A stretch of DNA of 64,000 bases from an uncultured Chloroflexia bacterium (lineage in GTDB: Bacteria > Chloroflexota > Limnocylindria > QHBO01): contig CAWGTN010000002.1 in assembly GCA_963825525.1 (NCBI GenBank), forward strand, positions 288,001 to 352,000, written 5' to 3'. The notes beneath the pieces were generated by a model. It was given only the letters and a program-made list of their open reading frames with translations, was not told where the DNA came from and searched no databases. Every line of letters starts with the position of its first letter. Within the stretch, counting starts at the first letter, position 1. A program made the translations under genes and the position numbers. Below, one piece after another: positions 56,221-62,966 of this stretch.

Positions 56221-56883
56221 CTACGATCCCTGCTGTGCCGGCGCCTCGCCCGCCGCCGGAGCCGCCGGCTCACGCGCTGGAGCCGGAACCTTGGCGGCGA
56301 TCGCGTCACCGATGGTGTCGCCGGCAGCCGCGGATCCGTCCGCTTCGCCGTTCTCGCTCTTCTTCTCCGGTCGCTTCTCGACCGGTGCCATCACGATGTA
56401 CATGCTTCGGCCCTCGAGCAGTGGTTGCCGCTCGATGAAGCCGTGCTCGGAGAGCTCCTCCGCCGTCCGCATCAGCAGATCGCGTCCGAGATTCGCGTGG
56501 CTGATCTCTCGCCCGCGGAATCGCACCGTGACCTTGACGCGGTCCCCCTTGTCGAGGAACTCCGCCGCTCGCCGCGCCTTCGTGCGGAGGTCGTGGACGT
56601 CGATCTTGACGGCCAGGCGAACTTCCTTGAAGGTCTGCGACTTCTGCTTCTTCTTTTGCTCGCGTTCGCGCTTCTGCAGCTCGTACTTGTACTGGCCGTA
56701 GTCGAGGATGCGACAGACCGGCGGGACCGCGGTGGGTGCGACCTCCACGAGGTCGAGACCCCTTTCCTGTGCCAGAGCGAGCGCCTCGGACGTCGCCATG
56801 ACGCCCAACTGCTGCCCTTCATCGTCAATGATCCTCACCTCGCGGATGCGGATCATCTCGTTGATGCGGAGGTCCTTGGCCAG
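56221..56883 (-). CDS. infC: Translation initiation factor IF-3 (probable CTG start)
   Basis: GAAGGAG RBS then CTG GCC AAG GAC CTC CGC ATC AAC GAG (xAKDLRINE). LDLVEV, PPVCRILDYG and VRFRGRE. Confidence 0.95.
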   Translation of the reverse strand: MAKDLRINEMIRIREVRIIDDEGQQLGVMATSEALALAQERGLDLVEVAPTAVPPVCRILDYGQYKYELQKREREQKKKQKSQTFKEVRLAVKIDVHDLRTKARRAAEFLDKGDRVKVTVRFRGREISHANLGRDLLMRTAEELSEHGFIERQPLLEGRSMYIVMAPVEKRPEKKSENGEADGSAAAGDTIGDAIAAKVPAPAREPAAPAAGEAPAQQGS

Positions 56884-56904
56884 CTTTCTTGCTCTCCTTC
56901 AACA

Positions 56905-56994
56905 ACAAGGCCACCGTACCGATCACGGACGGGTGGCCTTGCAACGTACGCGAAATGCCGACGAAGGATACACCGAAACCGAACGGATGGTCAA
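56905..56994 (-). promoter_or_regulatory. infC promoter and leader hairpin (possible L20-type attenuator)
   Basis: TTGACC(56994)-18nt-TATCCT(56970). Hairpin AAGGCCACC...GGTGGCCTT (56907-56940) followed by GTTGTT. Confidence 0.55.
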
Positions 56995-57020
56995 CGCGAG
57001 GACCACGGCGCCGGACAGCG

Positions 57021-57048
57021 ATGAGGACCGCCTTTCGGCAGTCCTCAT
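57021..57048 (-). terminator. GAAA-capped hairpin closing the peptide transcript
   Basis: Minus strand ATGAGGACTGCC-GAAA-GGCGGTCCTCAT; no strong U tract. Confidence 0.55.
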
Positions 57049-57086
57049 GTTCGCTCCGCGGACTCGTGAGAGCCCAGGCCGGTTGG

Positions 57087-57188
57087 TCAGTACCAGCGAT
57101 GTCCGGCCCGGATCACCAGGTCCAGCGGAGCGGGCACTGTCGGAGCAGCCTGCAGTCGGTCGTCTGAGTTGCACACGAACGCGTACAT
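57087..57188 (-). CDS. 33-aa peptide ending AGHRWY (not in ORF track)
   Basis: ATG 1 nt after the stop of the upstream peptide; MYAFVCNSDDRLQAAPTVPAPLDLVIRAGHRWY. Confidence 0.5.
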   Translation of the reverse strand: MYAFVCNSDDRLQAAPTVPAPLDLVIRAGHRWY

Positions 57189-57189
57189 C

Positions 57190-57279
57190 TCAGTTCCACC
57201 GCATGCCGGCTGCAAGGGAGAGGGCCATCGACGCCAGGATCGTGACGGCCCAGGTGAGTCGCGTCAGTCGGTAAGCCAC
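57190..57279 (-). CDS. 29-aa signal-peptide-like precursor ending AGMRWN (not in ORF track)
   Basis: GAGGTG RBS 7 nt before the GTG; MAYRLTRLTWAVTILASMALSLAAGMRWN. First ORF downstream of the riboswitch. Confidence 0.75.
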   Translation of the reverse strand: MAYRLTRLTWAVTILASMALSLAAGMRWN

Positions 57280-57309
57280 GCTTGTTCACCTCGATGAGGG
57301 GACACGATC

Positions 57310-57398
57310 GGAGCCGGCAACCGGGCGGCCTCGGTCCCGTATTGGGCGAGGTCCCTGGCTTTGCGTCCCCGCCTCGCGGCGGGTTTGCCCTGGACGGA
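57310..57398 (-). ncRNA. Cyclic di-GMP-I riboswitch (GEMM-I)
   Basis: Minus strand CAGGGCAAACCCGCC-GCGA-GGCGGGGACGCAAAGCCAGGGACCT...AGGCCGCCCGGTTGCCG. Matches the class-I hallmarks GGCAAAC, GNRA-capped P2, GACGCAAAGC and GGTT(A/G)CC. Confidence 0.92.
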
Positions 57399-57458
57399 CG
57401 ATCGACGGAAGGCGATTCTCGCCCTCAGTGCGACCGTAGGCCGGAGGTCCGGGCACGC

Positions 57459-58034
57459 CTATCGCTCATCGGTACTCGGCGGGGGGTACGTTGGTGGGAG
57501 GTTCCCCGGCGCACCGCCCCTGCGCATCAGCACGGCAATCGTCCACGCCACCCCGATGGCGATGAGCACGTCGCCGACGCTGAACACGTTGGCGAACGGG
57601 AGTGGCGGAGGAAGCGCAAAGATGTCGGTCAGGGGATGCAGTCGTGGGGCGTCCATCACGACGCTGTTCGAGTAGCCCTCGTTGACCTCCCGCCCGAGGG
57701 CGGCGAGGGCACCGGGCGAGGCGGGCATCGAGCCGCCGTTTGCCACGATGGCGGCGAGGTTGCTTGCTGCGCCGATCGCCACCAATCCCAGGCCACCGAG
57801 CGCCAGGTTGCGGAGGACCACCACCAGCACCAGTGCGGTCGACCCGACATAGATGGGCATGCCGAGGTCGCCGACGCGCTCGGCCACCGGCCCGAAGAAG
57901 AGAACCACCTGGATCATCAGCCCGATGAGCGCCAGCGGTGCCCAACGGAGACGCGCGTCGCCCAGGCGGGACAGCTCCCCGCCGCCGAGCCACCCGGCAA
58001 GCAGACCGGCCGGCAGCGCGTAGAGCATGAACAT
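57459..58034 (-). CDS. DUF5317 family membrane protein
   Basis: GWLGGG, NL..IVANGGSMP, LTDIFALP and NVFSVGDVLI. TGATG coupling to the upstream sensor. Confidence 0.85.
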   Translation of the reverse strand: MFMLYALPAGLLAGWLGGGELSRLGDARLRWAPLALIGLMIQVVLFFGPVAERVGDLGMPIYVGSTALVLVVVLRNLALGGLGLVAIGAASNLAAIVANGGSMPASPGALAALGREVNEGYSNSVVMDAPRLHPLTDIFALPPPLPFANVFSVGDVLIAIGVAWTIAVLMRRGGAPGNLPPTYPPPSTDER

Positions 58035-60691
58035 CAGTCAGCCAGGCCCCGCACGAGCGGCGGGATGGCGGGGGCCGACGCTGCGTTCCGTCGAGCGGAT
58101 CCCATGCCGATCACGGTTGGATTCATGCGGAGCGTCTCAATGGGCGCCGGGCGAGCGAACAGGTAGCCCTGCCCGATCTCGCAGCCCATCTCGCGCAGCC
58201 GAGCCAGCTGTCCGGCGTCCTCGATGCCCTCGGCAATGACCATGAGCCCGAGCCGTTGACCCAGCGCCAGGATCGCTCCGGTGAACGCCCACTCCTGCCC
58301 CTCGTCTGCTGCGGGCCCGACGAAGTCCTTCGCGATCTTGAGGATGTCGACCGGGAACCGACGCAGGTACGTGAGCGACGCGTAGCCGGTCCCGAAGTCA
58401 TCGATGGCGATCCGGACGCCGAGGGCTCTCAGCGACTTGAGCTTTTCGATCGTTGCCTGGGTGTCGCGGAACATCGCCGTTTCGGTGATCTCGATGACCA
58501 GGCGCGAAGCGGGCAGGCCGCTCGACTCCAGCACGGCTTCGACGTCCGCGAGAAACTCGCGCTGCTGGAGCTGTACCGCCGAGACGTTCACGCTCACGAA
58601 GAAGTCGTCGTCGATCGGCAGGGATCCATGGACCATGCTGATCTCGTTGGCTGCCGTCTCCATCACGAAGCGCCCCAGCGGGATAATCGCCCCGGACGCC
58701 TCCGCCAGCGCGATGAACTCGTCGGGGTTCACGAGGTCGCGTCCCGGCCGACGCCAACGGGCCAGCGCCTCCATCCCGATGGCCCGGCCGCTGACCAGGT
58801 CGACGATGGGCTGATGCACGACCATGAGCTCGCTTCGCCCGACGGCGCCGCTGAGCGCGTTCGTCATCTCGTGCCGCGCGATGATGGCCGCATGCAGCAT
58901 CGGGTCGAAGACCGCGAACTGCCTCCGTCCATTTCCCTTCGCGGTGTACATCGCCACGTCCGCGTTTCCGAGCAGCTCATCCGCGGACTGCTGCGGACCC
59001 TGGCTGGCCGCGATCCCGATGCTCACGCCGACGGTCACCTCGCGTCCGTGCACCGGGAAGGCATTCCCGAGCGCCGCCACCAGGCGCTCCGCCACGGCGG
59101 CTGATCGGCTGAGATCGGGCTCATCTGCGAGCAGGATGGCGAACTCGTCGCCTCCGAGGCGCGACGCAAGGTCATCCTCTCGGACACAGGCGCGAATGCG
59201 CTCCGCGACCATCACGAGGAGCTCGTCACCGGCCGCATGGCCGAGCGTGTCATTGACGTTCTTGAAATCGTCGAGGTCGAGCAGCAGCACGACGGCGCAC
59301 GGCCCATCGGCTTCCTGGCCGGCGATGCGCGAGGACGCCGCCTCGGTAAACGAGGCGCGGTTCGGCATGTCGGTCAGTGGATCGTGGTACGCCTGGTAGC
59401 GAAGCTGCTCCTTGAGCCGCGACAGTTCTGCCAGTGACTGCTCGAGCTGGCCGTTCTCGAGGGCGACCGCAGCCTGGTTGGCGAGCGTTTCGAGCAGCCG
59501 CAGGTCGTCGTTTCCGAATGTCGTCCCCTCGGTCAGCCTGTTGGCGACCGTGAAGAGCCCGATCACACCGGCTTCGCCGACCAGCGGCGCAACCATGGCC
59601 TGTCGAATGGCCATCAGCCTGCCTCCGGGAGTTTCAGCCAGGTGCACGAATCCCGCGCGACGCTCGTCGATCAGGTCGCCCAGCGCAGGATCGATGCGCA
59701 TTTCGGGGATCGGCTGGATCGTCTCCGACGGGGCGTCGTGCAGCGACGTGGTGCGCAGAGCGTGCTGATCCGTGGCATCCGGGCGCAGGACGAGCTCGGC
59801 AACTTCCGCGCGGAACATCGAGCGGGCGTGATCGAGAAGTGCGACCAGGGCGACGTCAAGCTCCGGCGAGTGCTGGAGGATGCGGCTCGACTGATACACC
59901 ATCTCGAGCCGCTCATGCTTCTCTCGCTCCGAAACCCAAGCCCGATACGCGAGGAAGAGGGTGATGATCGGGATTGCCAGCAGCCACAGCGCGCCGGGGC
60001 TGGCCCACAGGATGGTCACCGCCACCAGCGCGATGCTCGTGTTCGCCACGGCGACCATGAGTCCGAACTGCAGCATGTCGGGGAGCTTCTTGTACTGGGG
60101 TGCGCCCCCGGACAGGGTGATGGCCGTGGCGATGCTCAGTGCCCCGACGACCGTGGCGGCCGCCGTCGCTCCGAACGCCGCAAGGTAGTCGGTCAGGTGC
60201 GGCATGCCGGTGCCGGCCGCGGCCACCTGGAAGATCGCCATCATCACGACCGCCAGGAGGAGATAGTTCGCGAGGTTGAAGGCGACCTTCACCGGGGCCT
60301 GTCGCAACAGCACCAGTGCCGTCAGCGCCCCGACACCCAGGGCGAGAAGGTAGGTCCCCGCGGGCAGGAAGAACAGGCCGATCACGGCCGGCATCTCCGT
60401 CAGAGAGAACGCATGGGACTCGCGACGGAAGTGGACCTCGATGACCTTGATGTCGGCGAGCGCGAACCCGGCCGCGATCGCAATCCAGGGAATCTCGAAT
60501 GGCACGCCACGGCGCGGCGCCGGGGCCACGAACTGCAGGTAGACGAGCAGTGCCAGTCCGGCCAGGAGGAACGAGAAGAGCCACACCCTGCGCGCCGGTC
60601 CAGCCGCCACGAAGCCGGCCCGGATCCGCTGCAGCGGCGAGCGTGGATGCAGGACCCGATCGTCGGCGGTAGGTGCCGTGGGTGAAACCAC
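58034..60691 (-). CDS. Multi-TM sensor-GAF-GGDEF-EAL protein
   Basis: About 7-8 TM segments (HFRRESHAFS, KVAFNLA), GAF, HDPLT, RLGGDEF, MEALARW, DDFGTGY and AEGIE. Start uncertain (60691-60748). Confidence 0.92.
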   Translation of the reverse strand: MVSPTAPTADDRVLHPRSPLQRIRAGFVAAGPARRVWLFSFLLAGLALLVYLQFVAPAPRRGVPFEIPWIAIAAGFALADIKVIEVHFRRESHAFSLTEMPAVIGLFFLPAGTYLLALGVGALTALVLLRQAPVKVAFNLANYLLLAVVMMAIFQVAAAGTGMPHLTDYLAAFGATAAATVVGALSIATAITLSGGAPQYKKLPDMLQFGLMVAVANTSIALVAVTILWASPGALWLLAIPIITLFLAYRAWVSEREKHERLEMVYQSSRILQHSPELDVALVALLDHARSMFRAEVAELVLRPDATDQHALRTTSLHDAPSETIQPIPEMRIDPALGDLIDERRAGFVHLAETPGGRLMAIRQAMVAPLVGEAGVIGLFTVANRLTEGTTFGNDDLRLLETLANQAAVALENGQLEQSLAELSRLKEQLRYQAYHDPLTDMPNRASFTEAASSRIAGQEADGPCAVVLLLDLDDFKNVNDTLGHAAGDELLVMVAERIRACVREDDLASRLGGDEFAILLADEPDLSRSAAVAERLVAALGNAFPVHGREVTVGVSIGIAASQGPQQSADELLGNADVAMYTAKGNGRRQFAVFDPMLHAAIIARHEMTNALSGAVGRSELMVVHQPIVDLVSGRAIGMEALARWRRPGRDLVNPDEFIALAEASGAIIPLGRFVMETAANEISMVHGSLPIDDDFFVSVNVSAVQLQQREFLADVEAVLESSGLPASRLVIEITETAMFRDTQATIEKLKSLRALGVRIAIDDFGTGYASLTYLRRFPVDILKIAKDFVGPAADEGQEWAFTGAILALGQRLGLMVIAEGIEDAGQLARLREMGCEIGQGYLFARPAPIETLRMNPTVIGMGSARRNAASAPAIPPLVRGLAD

Positions 60692-60775
60692 GCTCGCATG
60701 GTGCTCCCTCGACCGGCTTGGCGCCGTCCACCATTCGTACCGAGGCACCCCGTACCCCGAAGGGCCGGAAGGCGC

Positions 60776-61135
60776 TCAGTAGTTGTGGAAGATCGCCACC
60801 GCGCGGCCGTCAGGATCGGCGACTCGGAAGGAACGACTCCCCTCCCAGCGGTCGCCGGAAGGTGGTCCGACGAGTGCGAAGCCGCGCCTTGCAAGCTCCT
60901 GCGCCCACGCATCGACCTCGGCGGCCGTGTCGACACGGAACCCGATCTGGATTCCCTCGCGCGTGGCCTTCTCGCCTCGACGGAAGCTCAGCTCGAACCC
61001 GCCGAGCTCCAGGTCGACTCCGCGCTCATCGTTCGCCATGCGCTTGAAGCCGAATGCCGATTCGTAGAACTCGGCGGCGTGATCCGGGTTGGTTGAAAGC
61101 AGGGCCAGTTGGCCGATGCCGCGCATCTTCCTCAT
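60776..61135 (-). CDS. VOC/glyoxalase family protein
   Basis: AAEFYESAFG, QIGFRV and RSFRVADPDG. Confidence 0.85.
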   Translation of the reverse strand: MRKMRGIGQLALLSTNPDHAAEFYESAFGFKRMANDERGVDLELGGFELSFRRGEKATREGIQIGFRVDTAAEVDAWAQELARRGFALVGPPSGDRWEGSRSFRVADPDGRAVAIFHNY

Positions 61136-61148
61136 GGCGTGATGCTGA

Positions 61149-62966
61149 TCACGCCTCGGAGCCGTTCCCGTCGTCGAACGGCCACAGCTCGCGCGAGCCG
61201 GCCCGTTGCTGAAGATCTGCCACGAACTCGGCAATCGGAACGCCCTGGGAGGAGGATCCGCTGCGCAGCCGAGGCGAAACCGCATTCGCCTCGATGTCAC
61301 GGTCCCCAACCACGACCATCACCGGGACCTTCTGCTCCTGGGCGTCGCGCAGCTTCAGCTGCATGCGCTCCGATCGATCGTCAACGGCCGCACGCAACCC
61401 TGCGGCAGCGATGGTCGAGCGGACCTGTTCCGCGTACTCGAGGTGGCGGTCCGCGATCGGCACCACCATGACCTGGATTGGAGCCAGCCACAACGGGAAC
61501 GCACCGGTGTAGTGCTCGGTGATGATCCCGATGAATCGCTCGAAGCTGCCGTAGATGGCGTAGTGGATCACGACCGGCCGCTCGAATCCCCCATCGGCGG
61601 CCCGATACTCGAGGTCGAAACGCTGCGGCAGCTGGTAGTCGGCCTGGATCGTGGCCATCTGCCACTCCCGACCGAGGGCGTCCTCGATGAAGATGTCGAT
61701 CTTCGGCGCGTAGAACGCACCGCCTCCCTCGTCCATCGTGAAGGACATGCCGTCCTCCTCGAGCCGTTCGCGAAGCCTGCCCTCGGCCCGCTCCCAGAAC
61801 TCGTCCGAGCCCAGTCGCTTCTCCGGCCGCGTGGCGAGCTTCGCCCGAGGCTCGAAGCCGAACGGCGCGTACTGCCTGCGGACGAGCGACAGGGCAAGGC
61901 GGATCTCGTCATCGACCTGGTCGTCACGGCAGAAGACGTGTGAGTCGTCCTGCGTGAGCTGGCGCACGCGGAACATTCCGGCGAGCACGCCGGTGCGTTC
62001 CTTGCGGAAGAGCGTGGAGTAGTCCGCGAAGCGCATCGGCAGCTCCCGATACGAGTGAGACCGCGTCTTGTAGATGAGGATCTCTTCCGGGCAGTTCATC
62101 GGCTTGAGGCCGGACACGTGGTCGTAGTCGTCGAGCACGAACATGTTGTCCTGGTAGTTGCCCCAGTGGCCGGATGTCTCCCACAGCTCCTTGCGGACGA
62201 GACTGGGGGTCCGCACCTCGTCGAAGCCCGCCTCGCGGCGCACCTCGCGGGACCAATCCTCGAGCGCGCGCCAGATGGCCATCCCCTTGGGATGCAGGAA
62301 CGGAGCGGCCGGCGATTCGGGGTGGAAGGTGAAGAGGTCGAGCTCTCGGCCGAGCTTGCGGTGATCGCGCTTCTTCGCCTCCTCGAGACGCCACAAATGC
62401 TTGTCGAGGTCTTCCTGCGTATCCCAGGCGGTTCCGTAGATGCGCTGGAGCATCGGACGCGTCTCGTCGCCACGCCAATACGCGCCGGCGGTGGTCAGCA
62501 GCTTGAAGGCACCGAGCTCCCCGGTGAAGCCGATGTGCCCGCCCCGGCACAGGTCCTCGAACGTGCCGTGCCGGTAGAAGCTGACCGTCGGACCCTCCGA
62601 CTCGGGGAGATCCCCGATGATCTCGACCTTGTATGGCTGCCCGAGACCTCGCTCCAGCTCGATCGCCTCGGTGCGGGGCAGGTCCCTCGAATGCTCGAAT
62701 GCCAGGTTGGCCTGCTGCTGCTCCCGCATCTTCGCCTCGATCTGCTCGAGGTCGGCCGGGGTCAGCGGTCGCGGAAGGTCATAGTCGTAGTAGAAGCCAT
62801 CCTTGATGGCCGGCCCGATGCCGAGCTTGGCGTCCGGGAAGAGCTCGAGCACCGCCGCGGCCATCATGTGCGCCGCGCTGTGACGCATGGCCGAAAGATG
62901 ATCTTCCGTTCCGGAGGACAGCGCCTCGCCGGCGTCCACGGGCGTCTCGTCAGGGTCATGTGCCAT
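61149..62966 (-). CDS. thrS: Threonine--tRNA ligase
   Basis: RHSAAH, DLCRG, RDHRKLG, KPMNCP, GAFYAPKID and GSFERF. Confidence 0.97.
   Translation of the reverse strand: MAHDPDETPVDAGEALSSGTEDHLSAMRHSAAHMMAAAVLELFPDAKLGIGPAIKDGFYYDYDLPRPLTPADLEQIEAKMREQQQANLAFEHSRDLPRTEAIELERGLGQPYKVEIIGDLPESEGPTVSFYRHGTFEDLCRGGHIGFTGELGAFKLLTTAGAYWRGDETRPMLQRIYGTAWDTQEDLDKHLWRLEEAKKRDHRKLGRELDLFTFHPESPAAPFLHPKGMAIWRALEDWSREVRREAGFDEVRTPSLVRKELWETSGHWGNYQDNMFVLDDYDHVSGLKPMNCPEEILIYKTRSHSYRELPMRFADYSTLFRKERTGVLAGMFRVRQLTQDDSHVFCRDDQVDDEIRLALSLVRRQYAPFGFEPRAKLATRPEKRLGSDEFWERAEGRLRERLEEDGMSFTMDEGGGAFYAPKIDIFIEDALGREWQMATIQADYQLPQRFDLEYRAADGGFERPVVIHYAIYGSFERFIGIITEHYTGAFPLWLAPIQVMVVPIADRHLEYAEQVRSTIAAAGLRAAVDDRSERMQLKLRDAQEQKVPVMVVVGDRDIEANAVSPRLRSGSSSQGVPIAEFVADLQQRAGSRELWPFDDGNGSEA

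Follow-up and report, generated by a model that had tools for sequence, protein, structure and literature searches.

A conserved c-di-GMP riboswitch module links micropeptides with an A-G-x-[RK]-W tail to DUF5317 membrane proteins in Limnocylindria

Results

Organization of the locus

The window, by which we mean the whole 64,000-nt stretch of DNA that was analysed, comes from an uncultured soil Chloroflexota bacterium, and the lineage carrying the module described here is a class-level Chloroflexota group named Limnocylindria in the sources. The minus strand carries, in order, a TM-GAF-GGDEF-EAL gene (the sensor) and a DUF5317 gene, with a one-base overlap between the sensor stop codon and the DUF5317 ATG, then a c-di-GMP-I aptamer, two micro-ORFs and a strong hairpin (Table 1). 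An initial annotation had described four co-oriented parts in a row, all of which were found. The order and adjacency kept in relatives support a conserved functional neighbourhood and not a chance arrangement.

Table 1. Features of the module in the window
Feature	Position	Strand	Description
Membrane sensor enzyme	58034-60748	-	904 aa; multi-TM N-terminus, GAF, GGDEF, EAL (Pfam)
DUF5317 membrane protein	57459-58034	-	191 aa; PF17248, E 6e-27
-10-like hexamer TACGGT (TAnnnT)	57433-57438	-	Conserved block, 10-locus alignment
c-di-GMP class I aptamer	57312-57398	-	Rfam RF03167 / RF01051 matches
Expression platform, ~32 nt	57280-57311	-	Contains Shine-Dalgarno GAGGTG (57287-57292)
sORF1, "type A" micropeptide	57190-57279	-	29 aa, GTG start, tail AGMRWN
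sORF2, "type C" partner peptide	57087-57188	-	33 aa, tail LVIRAGHRWY
GC-rich hairpin	57022-57047	-	3´ end of micro-operon; dG -34.1 kcal/mol, z -4.5

The sensor matched the Pfam GAF (residues 297-432), GGDEF (453-609; E 4e-45) and EAL (630-867; E 3e-67) domains, and its GGDEF, RxxD (REDD) and EAL / DDFGTGY motifs are intact by direct reading. For the ~280-aa hydrophobic N-terminal region (residues 1-283), no Pfam or NCBIfam family was matched. At 26 of the 39 peptide-linked loci, an orthologue of the sensor precedes DUF5317, while in 12 of the 39 no c-di-GMP enzyme was present within the 1.4-3.3 kb examined upstream. The sensor is therefore a frequent but not an obligatory member of the module, and any feedback onto an adjacent enzyme could not be universal.

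Against RF03167 (gathering score 59) the aptamer reached 60.5 bits, and against RF01051 (gathering score 35) it reached 55.3 bits; clan competition in cmscan accordingly picked RF03167, the GGC variant, even though the aptamer bears the canonical A in CGCAAAGCC. The earlier identification of a c-di-GMP-I riboswitch stands, with the correction that the Rfam label is that of the variant. In architecture and in the CGCAAAG nucleotide, the aptamer agrees with the consensus of RF01051 (c-di-GMP-I, GEMM-I), although it is assigned to RF03167 and its cargo is a two-peptide micro-operon instead of an ordinary gene. Both stems show compensatory changes in aptamers aligned across genera. The stretch from the aptamer to the sORF1 start codon contains no terminator, and in relatives it is mostly 32-40 nt long.

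In an alignment of 10 loci, the TACGGT block forms conserved columns between DUF5317 and the aptamer; it was not called by a consensus promoter scan and may, judging from its sequence, be the micro-operon's own promoter. The hairpin, which was kept in relatives with compensatory changes in the same alignment, has a dG of -34.1 kcal/mol in its 61-nt context (z = -4.5; 0 of 200 shuffles as stable). It lacks a U-tract in the window, while a U-rich tail is seen in some relatives. The hairpin is the probable terminator of the micro-operon, so that infC, located downstream, would lie outside riboswitch control.

The micro-ORFs are real genes

The two tiny ORFs ending AGMRWN (sORF1) and AGHRWY (sORF2) are present as claimed, and each encoded peptide has a C-terminal A-G-x-R-W motif followed by 0-4 variable residues. 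In sORF1, a basic N-terminus and a conserved hydrophobic helix precede the AGMRWN tail; R7, A19, A24, G25 and W28 are invariant in an alignment of 27 type A sequences, and helix columns A11, A16, A19, L20, A24 and G25 are invariant or nearly so. For sORF2, the frame as listed is 42 aa with a TTG start (57087-57215). The start retained in relatives is an ATG at 57188, one base beyond the end of sORF1; this tightly coupled frame encodes 33 aa, which is probably the true length. The N-terminus of sORF2 varies and is not hydrophobic, and neither a hydrophobic nor a signal segment was found in partners of this kind (type C). In other genera, another TM peptide ("type B", with the C-terminus ...ALVLEAG[QRK]RW) takes the position of sORF2.

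Chance occurrence was estimated from the whole 2.58-Mb genome, where 19 stop-to-stop frames in the six frames end AG.RW.{0,3}; at that density, another one would be expected within 150 nt on the same strand in ~5e-4 of cases. Comparative conservation is the stronger argument against chance. Among 31 distinct type A coding sequences, codon-position entropy was 20.4 / 10.4 / 26.4 and pN/pS was 0.56 in frame versus 0.98 and 2.22 in the shifted frames, a value that reflects moderate constraint only. The codons for A24, G25 and R27 vary synonymously. That the micro-ORFs are untranslated, with the conserved stretch forming part of the expression platform or another RNA, might be proposed given how short and unannotated they are and how many spurious ORFs GC-rich genomes yield. 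We consider this extremely unlikely in view of the Shine-Dalgarno sequence at a constant distance, the excess of third-position variability and the pN/pS minimum in the proposed frame, the synonymous changes in motif codons, an amino-acid motif that types A, B, C and D share on unrelated nucleotide sequences, and a frame and stop position kept over 24 genera. The codon statistics favour coding, and we regard the micropeptide ORFs as real genes.

The micro-operon is tied to one DUF5317 subfamily

The order of the module is the same in nine close relatives; it is kept in same-genus genomes and in L001. The same four parts are also found in L003 and L004, in a different genomic setting without thrS and infC as flanks. 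The initial annotation had proposed testing DUF5317 loci for enrichment of small ORFs ending G-x-[RK]-W. For 39 of the 77 unique standalone DUF5317 genes of the class, the 1.3 kb downstream contain a sense-strand ORF of at most 42 aa whose C-terminus fits [AGS]G.[RK]W.{0,4}, compared to 1/77 antisense, 0/77 upstream sense and 0/77 upstream antisense. An association with riboswitches was likewise seen, with an aptamer preceding the type A peptide in 29 of 29 cases. Within a subset of 67 loci drawn by DUF5317 score alone, the peptide was detected in 29 and the aptamer in 24, all 24 of which also have the peptide, and a type A peptide followed the aptamer in 20/20. Here a GGDEF-EAL gene was located upstream in 17/29 peptide loci versus 1/38 peptide-less loci. 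Among the class's 301 genomes, 50 matched the type A profile, and these represent 24 of 57 genera. These counts are not independent, because the compared genomes are related.

On the DUF5317 tree, the peptide label requires 13 changes versus a shuffled mean of 33 (0 of 500 shuffles as low), and single genomes can hold both peptide-linked and peptide-less DUF5317 paralogues. The micro-operon is thus genetically tied to one DUF5317 subfamily. DUF5317 is not generally peptide-dependent, since 38 of the 77 standalone genes lack the peptide within 1.3 kb and, in other classes of the phylum, the peptide was found at only 3 of 40 DUF5317 loci.

The same genome encodes a second module, which consists of a c-di-GMP-II riboswitch, a TM peptide, a TM-HD-GYP enzyme and a DUF5317-MFS fusion. 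Its aptamer scored 51.8 bits, under the gathering score of 53.5 (E 3e-10), and a class II aptamer was present at 6/6 loci of this kind checked. The 32-aa peptide ends AGGAGFRGW and is encoded by 27 of the family's 61 genomes; in the 12 cases that were cross-checked, the fusion gene follows 1.5-2 kb downstream. Taken with the first module, this defines the conserved core as riboswitch, [RK]W-tailed micropeptide and DUF5317.

DUF5317 and the question of peptide processing

DUF5317 has five predicted TM helices with a loop at residues 99-152, and its AlphaFold2 model has a pLDDT of 92.6. Two aspartates, D137 in a loop strand and D155 where the last TM helix begins, are 18 residues apart and invariant in 60 sequences. 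Using hhalign against 29 Chloroflexota LspA sequences, this pair was placed on the conserved Asp of the LspA VVDF and FNvAD motifs, which we take to be its catalytic residues (E 0.005, probability 7%). Peptidase_A8 was the second-best Pfam family of the window protein (E 0.16, 12.6 bits vs the cut-off of 25), with a signal in 3 of 60 homologues. The protein would resemble LspA (signal peptidase II, MEROPS A8, PF01252) in being small and polytopic, with two Asp ~18-19 residues apart, of which the second opens the last TM helix, and in a putative substrate that combines a basic n-region and a hydrophobic h-region with small residues (A-G) ahead of the site; the peptides' [LVI]-x-A-G-x resembles a lipobox minus its Cys. 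LspA has four TM helices, in contrast to the five predicted for DUF5317, and the two show no significant sequence or fold match. LspA was not found in a profile search of PDB sequences with DUF5317, a Foldseek search against the PDB gave neither LspA nor any fold below E 2.5 (the best match), and an Atlas search returned no named neighbour. The role of processing protease that the initial annotation gave DUF5317 is consequently backed by the Asp pair and the weak LspA alignment, and opposed by the missing LspA fold and the sub-threshold scores, so that an LspA-like peptidase is weakly suggested. A version without intercellular signalling, in which DUF5317 would be an outward-facing LspA-like aspartyl peptidase that matures or inactivates the AG-x-[RK]W peptides as its dedicated substrates, seems rather unlikely to us, as every sequence signal is sub-significant, the genome encodes a separate bona fide LspA, and most DUF5317 genes outside the class lack such a peptide.

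The full proposal had been that sORF1 and sORF2 are pheromone precursors cut by DUF5317, with a short x-R-W peptide binding the TM domain of the sensor from outside, a resulting shift in c-di-GMP, and the riboswitch closing an autoinduction (quorum-sensing) loop that dispenses with a histidine kinase. The loop architecture of enzyme, riboswitch and peptide is present, type A resembles a signal peptide plus a 3-8-residue tail, and the G/S/A-A-G before the tail resembles a signal-peptidase or lipobox-like site. The MFS transporter fused to the paralogous DUF5317 would suit export, and the weak LspA-like signals of DUF5317 are accompanied by "lipoprotein signal peptidase" as the homologue name in two source records. 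The pheromone precursors of Firmicutes and their phages, Phr, AimP and SHP, likewise consist of a signal peptide plus a short tail. As in these and in agr, a short precursor would be mostly export signal followed by a few C-terminal residues, and the NCBIfam AimP_fam model gave a sub-threshold match to sORF1 (E 0.06, 13.5 bits vs the cut-off of 35). Here, however, the tail is nearly invariant over 24 genera, whereas pheromones usually diversify, and the type A helix is conserved residue by residue, which suits membrane helix packing and not a discarded signal peptide. The type C partners lack an export signal, what follows W varies and may be missing altogether, such that the product could be as short as a tripeptide, and the LspA fold was not recovered for DUF5317. 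No agr components (AgrB or AgrC) and no RRNPP receptor were found at the locus, and peptide-DUF5317 pairs occur without an adjacent sensor. With tail and TM segment conserved, the partner lacking a signal and 12/39 loci enzyme-less, a secreted pheromone, the sensor TM domain as its receptor and autoinduction are partly disfavoured, and we judge the pheromone proposal improbable.

Discussion

We propose that the locus is a conserved c-di-GMP module in which the peptides are membrane effectors or feedback regulators acting with DUF5317, a reading to which we assign a probability of roughly 0.55. The c-di-GMP level, set in part by the neighbouring enzyme, would act through the riboswitch to control translation of the peptides. 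Based on charge distribution, type A would insert into the membrane N-in, C-out, which would place the [RK]-W tail at the outer face of the membrane, where the positive-inside rule, again applied to charges, also puts the Asp pair of DUF5317. Tail and DUF5317 may then act together at this face, by binding or by cleavage after A-G, with an outcome that would feed back on the partner c-di-GMP enzyme or another membrane target. Type C, having no hydrophobic segment, would need export to reach a site that faces outward. A role as membrane-resident effector or feedback regulator seems more likely to us than a diffusible pheromone.

The initial annotation knew of no characterised system of this type, a statement outdated by a report of small membrane proteins under class I c-di-GMP riboswitch control in C. 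difficile (CD1980.2 family; Nat Commun 2026, PMC13724677). This family, whose 58-aa proteins have a role in sporulation and are reported there to be without homologues outside C. difficile, is the closest system in print (PMC13724677). Both cases combine a class I c-di-GMP riboswitch with a tiny, previously unannotated, membrane-associated cargo (membrane location being predicted for type A), read the second messenger out via micro-proteins and include riboswitch-less paralogues (PMC13724677). They differ, comparing by description only, in length (58 aa versus 29-36 aa here, with the A-G-x-[RK]-W tail), in the switch, which there is an OFF switch by premature termination while here there is no terminator between aptamer and start, and in the coupled gene pair, which here is tied to DUF5317 and c-di-GMP enzymes (PMC13724677). 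This precedent of riboswitch-controlled small membrane proteins with remote targets (PMC13724677) could suggest that our peptides are independent c-di-GMP effectors, CD1980.2-like or toxin-like, with targets unrelated to DUF5317 or the sensor and an adjacency that reflects shared regulation or ancestry of a c-di-GMP island. The micro-operon also carries a riboswitch, a probable terminator and a putative promoter of its own. Its products resemble type I toxins in size and hydrophobicity. We nevertheless find independent effectors very improbable, because the adjacency survives different contexts and gene orders (peptides placed before the sensor in L104; two DUF5317 copies in L127, L133 and L134), is seen with two riboswitch classes and also without any riboswitch at six type-B-only loci, and because peptide linkage follows the DUF5317 subfamily on the tree.

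For the membrane-effector reading, MgrB, a small membrane regulator acting on PhoQ, offers a likeness, as a tiny single-helix membrane protein with pathway-dependent synthesis that is placed to act on a sensor. Control here is by a second-messenger riboswitch instead of a response regulator, and the partner would be a GGDEF-EAL or HD-GYP enzyme plus DUF5317. Collectively, this arrangement, previously without a described function, is conserved in many relatives.

Anatomy of the module and class of its riboswitch

The initial annotation had described four co-oriented parts in a row, ending in two tiny ORFs and closed by a hairpin, and ORF calling, Pfam, cmscan and folding located all of them on the minus strand (see the table of features). 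The module is flanked on the left by thrS (61149-62966) and a glyoxalase-family gene (60776-61309) and on the right by infC-rpmI-rplT-pheST. By Pfam and direct reading of the translation, the sensor carries both c-di-GMP enzyme domains with their catalytic motifs, as GGDEF, RxxD (REDD, five residues ahead of GGDEF), EAL and DDFGTGY are intact; its N-terminal hydrophobic ~280 residues matched no Pfam or NCBIfam family. The DUF5317 product scored 95 bits against a gathering threshold of 25, over profile positions 3-150 of 151.

Features of the DUF5317 module in the window and of the second c-di-GMP module of the same genome (contig C2)
Feature	Coordinates	Strand	Description
Sensor enzyme, 904 aa	58034-60748	minus	Pfam GAF, GGDEF (E 4e-45), EAL (E 3e-67)
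DUF5317 gene	57459-58034	minus	PF17248, E 6e-27; start on final base of sensor stop codon
c-di-GMP-I aptamer	57312-57398	minus	Sole riboswitch reported by cmscan in the 64-kb window
sORF1, 29 aa			GTG start, Shine-Dalgarno GAGGTG, ~32 nt past aptamer; basic N-terminus, one hydrophobic helix, tail AGMRWN
sORF2, 33 aa			ATG one base past sORF1 stop; non-hydrophobic, tail AGHRWY
GC-rich hairpin after sORF2	57022-57047		-34.1 kcal/mol, z -4.5
Second c-di-GMP module (L041, L183, L184)	G000:C2:1388097-1394911		Outside the window
Class II c-di-GMP aptamer	C2:1391236-1391318		RF01786, 51.8 bits vs gathering 53.5, E 3e-10; in 420-nt gap before HD-GYP gene
32-aa TM peptide	C2:1391419-1391517		Hydrophobic ORF, tail AGGAGFRGW; same 420-nt gap

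The assignment of the riboswitch to c-di-GMP-I was likewise borne out, RF01051 matching over its full length (1-87) at 55.3 bits (gathering 35, E 4e-10) with a canonical junction, GACGCAAAGCC, that agrees with the consensus GACGCAAAgCc, as do the junctions of all 14 aptamers aligned. The same element narrowly passed RF03167 (c-di-GMP-I-GGC; 60.5 bits, gathering 59), the label being set by Rfam clan competition. The RF03167 consensus, GACGCGAAgCc, has a G for the first A of CGCAAAG, which, from the two Rfam consensus lines, we take to be the variant-defining position. The variant G is absent, with A at that position in the window and in all 14 aligned aptamers of relatives; for this reason the GGC label was discarded as a functional call, and we treat the aptamer as a presumably ordinary c-di-GMP sensor. 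No terminator was found between aptamer and peptide start in the loci of relatives. When Shine-Dalgarno accessibility was compared between free and aptamer-enforced folds of 35 leaders to gauge switch polarity, the shift was inconsistent, with a start-site regex that was imprecise for some leaders.

Riboswitch control of infC was also considered, and was discarded given the strong conserved hairpin past sORF2 and the 1.4-3.7 kb of other DNA before infC in relatives. This extra DNA lies between sORF2 and infC in three same-genus loci (L035, L034 and L038), and the right-hand border of the module is therefore variable. Ahead of infC on the minus strand, we noted a promoter-like site (TTGACC...TATCCT, 56994-56965, within 56880-57000) and a second hairpin (~56905-56940) followed by TTGTTGTTG, directly ahead of the infC Shine-Dalgarno. 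The IF3 frame continues open on the 5' side of the annotated ATG (..KDLRINE M..), so a codon other than ATG is probably the start of infC.

The micropeptides are conserved and paired

A search of 61 relatives with RF03167 yielded 29 aptamer loci. In six loci of the same genus, counting the window, two ORFs come after the aptamer and end ...SAGMRW[NYWH] and ...LV[IL]RAGHRW[YNA], and the order thrS-glyoxalase-sensor-DUF5317-aptamer-sORF1-sORF2 is preserved in the same-genus relatives. The sensor, DUF5317, aptamer, sORF1, sORF2 and terminator are all present at two more distant loci (L003 and L004); no thrS or infC match was found within either locus, so the genomic context differs. In L004, as in L034 (genome G003), tblastn and HMM searches found the sensor and DUF5317 split over reading frames with peptides and aptamer intact, which points to frameshifts from assembly errors, or to pseudogenes.

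Taking the DUF5317 score as sole criterion, we then picked standalone DUF5317 genes in 301 genomes of the class and searched their sense strand within 1.3 kb downstream for ORFs no longer than 42 codons that end [AGS]G.[RK]W.{0,4}. The enrichment of short G-x-[RK]-W ORFs anticipated in the initial annotation was clear: 39/77 unique genes had such an ORF, compared with 1/77 when the same segments were read antisense and 0/77 for upstream segments of equal length on either strand, where loci scored as peptide-less could carry peptides beyond 1.3 kb and locus counts are non-independent because the compared genomes are related. With the sample restricted to loci not chosen through the window, the count was 29/67.

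Three forms of the peptide were distinguished. The type A consensus, which includes sORF1, is MKxNLARxTWALxxLASMALxLGAGMRWx, with R7, A19, A24, G25 and W28 invariant (n=27 sequences), and type B has the form M..LK.Q.FRVLL.LSA.ASSALVLEAG[QRK]RW. In type C, to which sORF2 belongs, a variable, non-hydrophobic N-terminal part precedes the tail [AS]GHRW. Across 31 distinct type A coding sequences, variability by codon position was 20.4, 10.4 and 26.4, pN/pS was lowest in frame, at 0.56 (0.98 and 2.22 for the shifted frames), and synonymous variation was seen at the tail codons for Ala, Gly and Arg. The type A profile matched in 50/301 genomes of the class and 24/57 genera. By these signatures the micro-ORFs are conserved genes, of a size (29-36 aa) that escapes standard gene callers. 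The Arg-Trp codons of sORF1 (CGGTGGAA, 57189-57200) form a Shine-Dalgarno-like sequence for sORF2, and part of the nucleotide conservation of the sORF1 tail may therefore serve translational coupling to sORF2.

Genomes flagged unpublished (G006, G098, G034, G137, G153, G162, G174, G180, G188, G217, G222, G301, G308 and G485) enter the tallies for the aptamer (61 relatives), Peptidase_A8, DUF5317 (301 genomes), the type A profile (301), the DUF5317-MFS fusion and the second-module peptide (61). The 77-locus and 40-locus tables contain no locus from these genomes, and L016 (G006) appears only in the aptamer-locus listing.

In relatives, we also observed other c-di-GMP-I aptamers ahead of larger proteins (among L005-L033, e.g. 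L006, L009, L010, L011, L016, L024 and L028). These proteins start M.[FY]W[DN]G..W and continue with a basic segment, a single TM helix and a big extracellular part; their N-terminal G-x-R-W resembles the tails of the micropeptides.

The stable core is the peptide and DUF5317

The aptamer precedes type A in all 29 loci where type A occurs (20/20 in the unbiased sample), mostly 32-40 nt from the start, and tandem aptamer-peptide units are found at three loci (L119, L135 and L138). Type B stands alone, with no aptamer, at six loci (L002, L078, L079, L092, L098 and L121). Upstream of DUF5317 there is a GGDEF-EAL sensor at 26/39 peptide loci and an HD-GYP enzyme at one more (1/39); neither was found within the 1.4-3.3 kb examined (just 1.4 kb of upstream context for L071-L099) at the remaining 12/39. 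From these tallies, peptide and DUF5317 make up the stable core, the riboswitch goes with type A, and c-di-GMP enzymes are the most frequent neighbours of DUF5317. The arrangement varies in that aptamer and peptides lie ahead of the sensor at L104, and a second DUF5317 gene does so at L127, L133 and L134.

On a tree of 115 DUF5317 sequences, the peptide label needs 13 changes versus a mean of 33 for shuffled labels, with 0/500 shuffles as low; peptide-linked and peptide-less paralogues coexist within single genomes. Outside the class but within the phylum, 40 standalone DUF5317 loci yielded no aptamer; only three (L154, L175 and L179) had a peptide-like ORF, and tblastn found an HD-GYP neighbour in 16.

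At seven loci (L071, L072, L074, L077, L085, L094 and L124), the gene directly after a peptide-less DUF5317 paralogue encodes a >400-aa protein. This protein matches the end of the sensor GAF region weakly and over a short stretch (E 5e-7 to 5e-5) and has no match to the sensor N-terminal TM region. We read this pair as a split form of the pairing of DUF5317 with c-di-GMP-type signalling. BLASTP detected no similarity between DUF5317 and the sensor TM region, and between the sensor and HD-GYP TM regions found only a 25-residue match (E 0.018).

A second module pairs a class II riboswitch with a DUF5317 fusion

The other DUF5317 domain of this genome is N-terminal in a 640-aa fusion protein, joined to an MFS-like transporter. 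It belongs to a second c-di-GMP module, ordered as a large regulator gene, a TM-HD-GYP gene and, directly following, the DUF5317-MFS fusion. Peptides of the AGGAGFRGW type occur in 27/61 genomes of the family, and wherever the fusion gene was listed as well (12 cases), the distance from the peptide down to it is 1.5-2 kb, with both on one strand. A class II aptamer was present at 6/6 second-module loci checked (three above the gathering score), with a smaller ORF ending KGW ahead of the peptide in 3/6. A single genome has thus recruited two riboswitch classes to one kind of cargo. That two unrelated classes would control this cargo next to DUF5317 argues for a functional triad.

Is DUF5317 a relative of LspA?

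Eight DUF5317 columns are invariant among 60 diverse homologues: P104, L135, D137, P142, P146, S152, G154 and D155. The AlphaFold2 model, a confident one (pLDDT 92.6), has five TM helices, with residues 99-152 forming a structured loop; by the positive-inside rule, this loop and both Asp are predicted to face outwards. The initial annotation had put forward that DUF5317 cuts the precursor. Signals pointing to the lipoprotein signal peptidase LspA are present but weak. Peptidase_A8 (PF01252) is the second Pfam match of the window protein, below the cut-off (12.6 bits vs gathering 25, E 0.16), and a match of any kind was seen in 3/60 homologues. With hhalign against 29 Chloroflexota LspA sequences, D137 and D155 align with the two conserved LspA Asp at E 0.005 and a probability of 7%. 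Two source records name DUF5317 homologues "lipoprotein signal peptidase", and a normal LspA gene lies elsewhere in the genome. Foldseek of the model against the PDB gave 77 matches up to E 10, of which the best had E 2.5 and none reached 0.001, and among the matches listed there was no LspA entry, so that the LspA fold was not recovered. PDB sequence searches with the single protein and with a profile returned nothing relevant, and the named clusters of the protein Atlas, with PF17248 skipped, gave no usable DUF5317 match. A predicted complex of the L003 DUF5317 with its 31-aa type A peptide, run with alignments and without controls, scored 0.23 against a mark of 0.32, a value that we weigh neither way on binding. 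A peptidase role for DUF5317 is a lead, not a finding.

Weak Peptidase_A8 matches at L100, L101 and L102 (in the further Chloroflexota genomes G088, G076 and G100) were considered as DUF5317 and rejected. They form a separate family of short LspA-like proteins (124-176 aa; motifs GNG...GYA[TS]DW...WLTN[VI]AD) that is distinct from both LspA and DUF5317, and therefore gives no link between the two.

Comparison with known systems and proposed mechanism

The closest published system is the CD1980.2 family of C. difficile, described as membrane-associated proteins of 58 aa whose class I c-di-GMP riboswitches work through premature termination and which play a part in sporulation (PMC13724677); that paper gives homologues outside C. 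difficile as absent. In outline the two systems are alike, and both have a class I c-di-GMP riboswitch directly ahead of a small ORF with a hydrophobic helix. By the published description, they differ in the peptide family and its paired arrangement, in the expression platform and in the partner genes. Unlike agr, the locus has no AgrB, AgrD-type precursor with a thiolactone Cys, AgrC histidine kinase or AgrA, Pfam on its six proteins giving only GAF, GGDEF, EAL, DUF5317, IF3 and glyoxalase domains; the same search found no RRNPP-type receptor. sORF1 contains no Cys, and the sole Cys of sORF2 is in its non-conserved part. Judged from this gene content, the module is not an agr system.

Beyond the anatomy, conservation, coding signal and genetic linkage established here, we propose a model in which c-di-GMP would control translation of the peptide pair, and type A would be membrane-inserted, its [RK]-W tail lying on the outer side. 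There the tail would meet the conserved acidic site of DUF5317, and the outcome would modulate the partner c-di-GMP enzyme or another membrane target. The co-translated soluble partner, with the same tail, could possibly be a competitor or decoy, or a second substrate.

The initial annotation had instead envisaged autoinduction by a peptide pheromone, released from its precursor by DUF5317 and bound by the TM domain of the sensor, with the riboswitch retuning expression. We favour a membrane-resident effector or feedback role over a diffusible pheromone, because the type A helix is conserved residue by residue with small residues regularly spaced, because the tail has been kept from genus to genus and has not diversified, and because the residues past W are variable or missing. 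A more far-reaching proposal, which we consider unlikely, is that DUF5317 would be a new outward-facing aspartyl peptidase or receptor for the [RK]-W tails of dedicated micropeptides, forming with the enzyme and riboswitch a peptide feedback or cell-to-cell loop that would use a second messenger and an RNA switch instead of histidine kinase and response regulator; the MFS-fused paralogue would then be an exporter version. Enzyme, riboswitch, peptide and membrane partner make up a compact architecture, a putative feedback circuit that would be heterologously testable with three or four small genes.

DUF5317 is found in 2603 representative clusters at E up to 0.001 and in 237/301 genomes of the class, and it was mentioned in no paper of the literature searched. 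The tie of one subfamily to dedicated micropeptides and c-di-GMP turnover enzymes provides a lead to its function. The module also adds an unrelated micro-protein family to the cargo of c-di-GMP riboswitches, the second such micro-protein output, in a phylum whose c-di-GMP biology is essentially unexplored.
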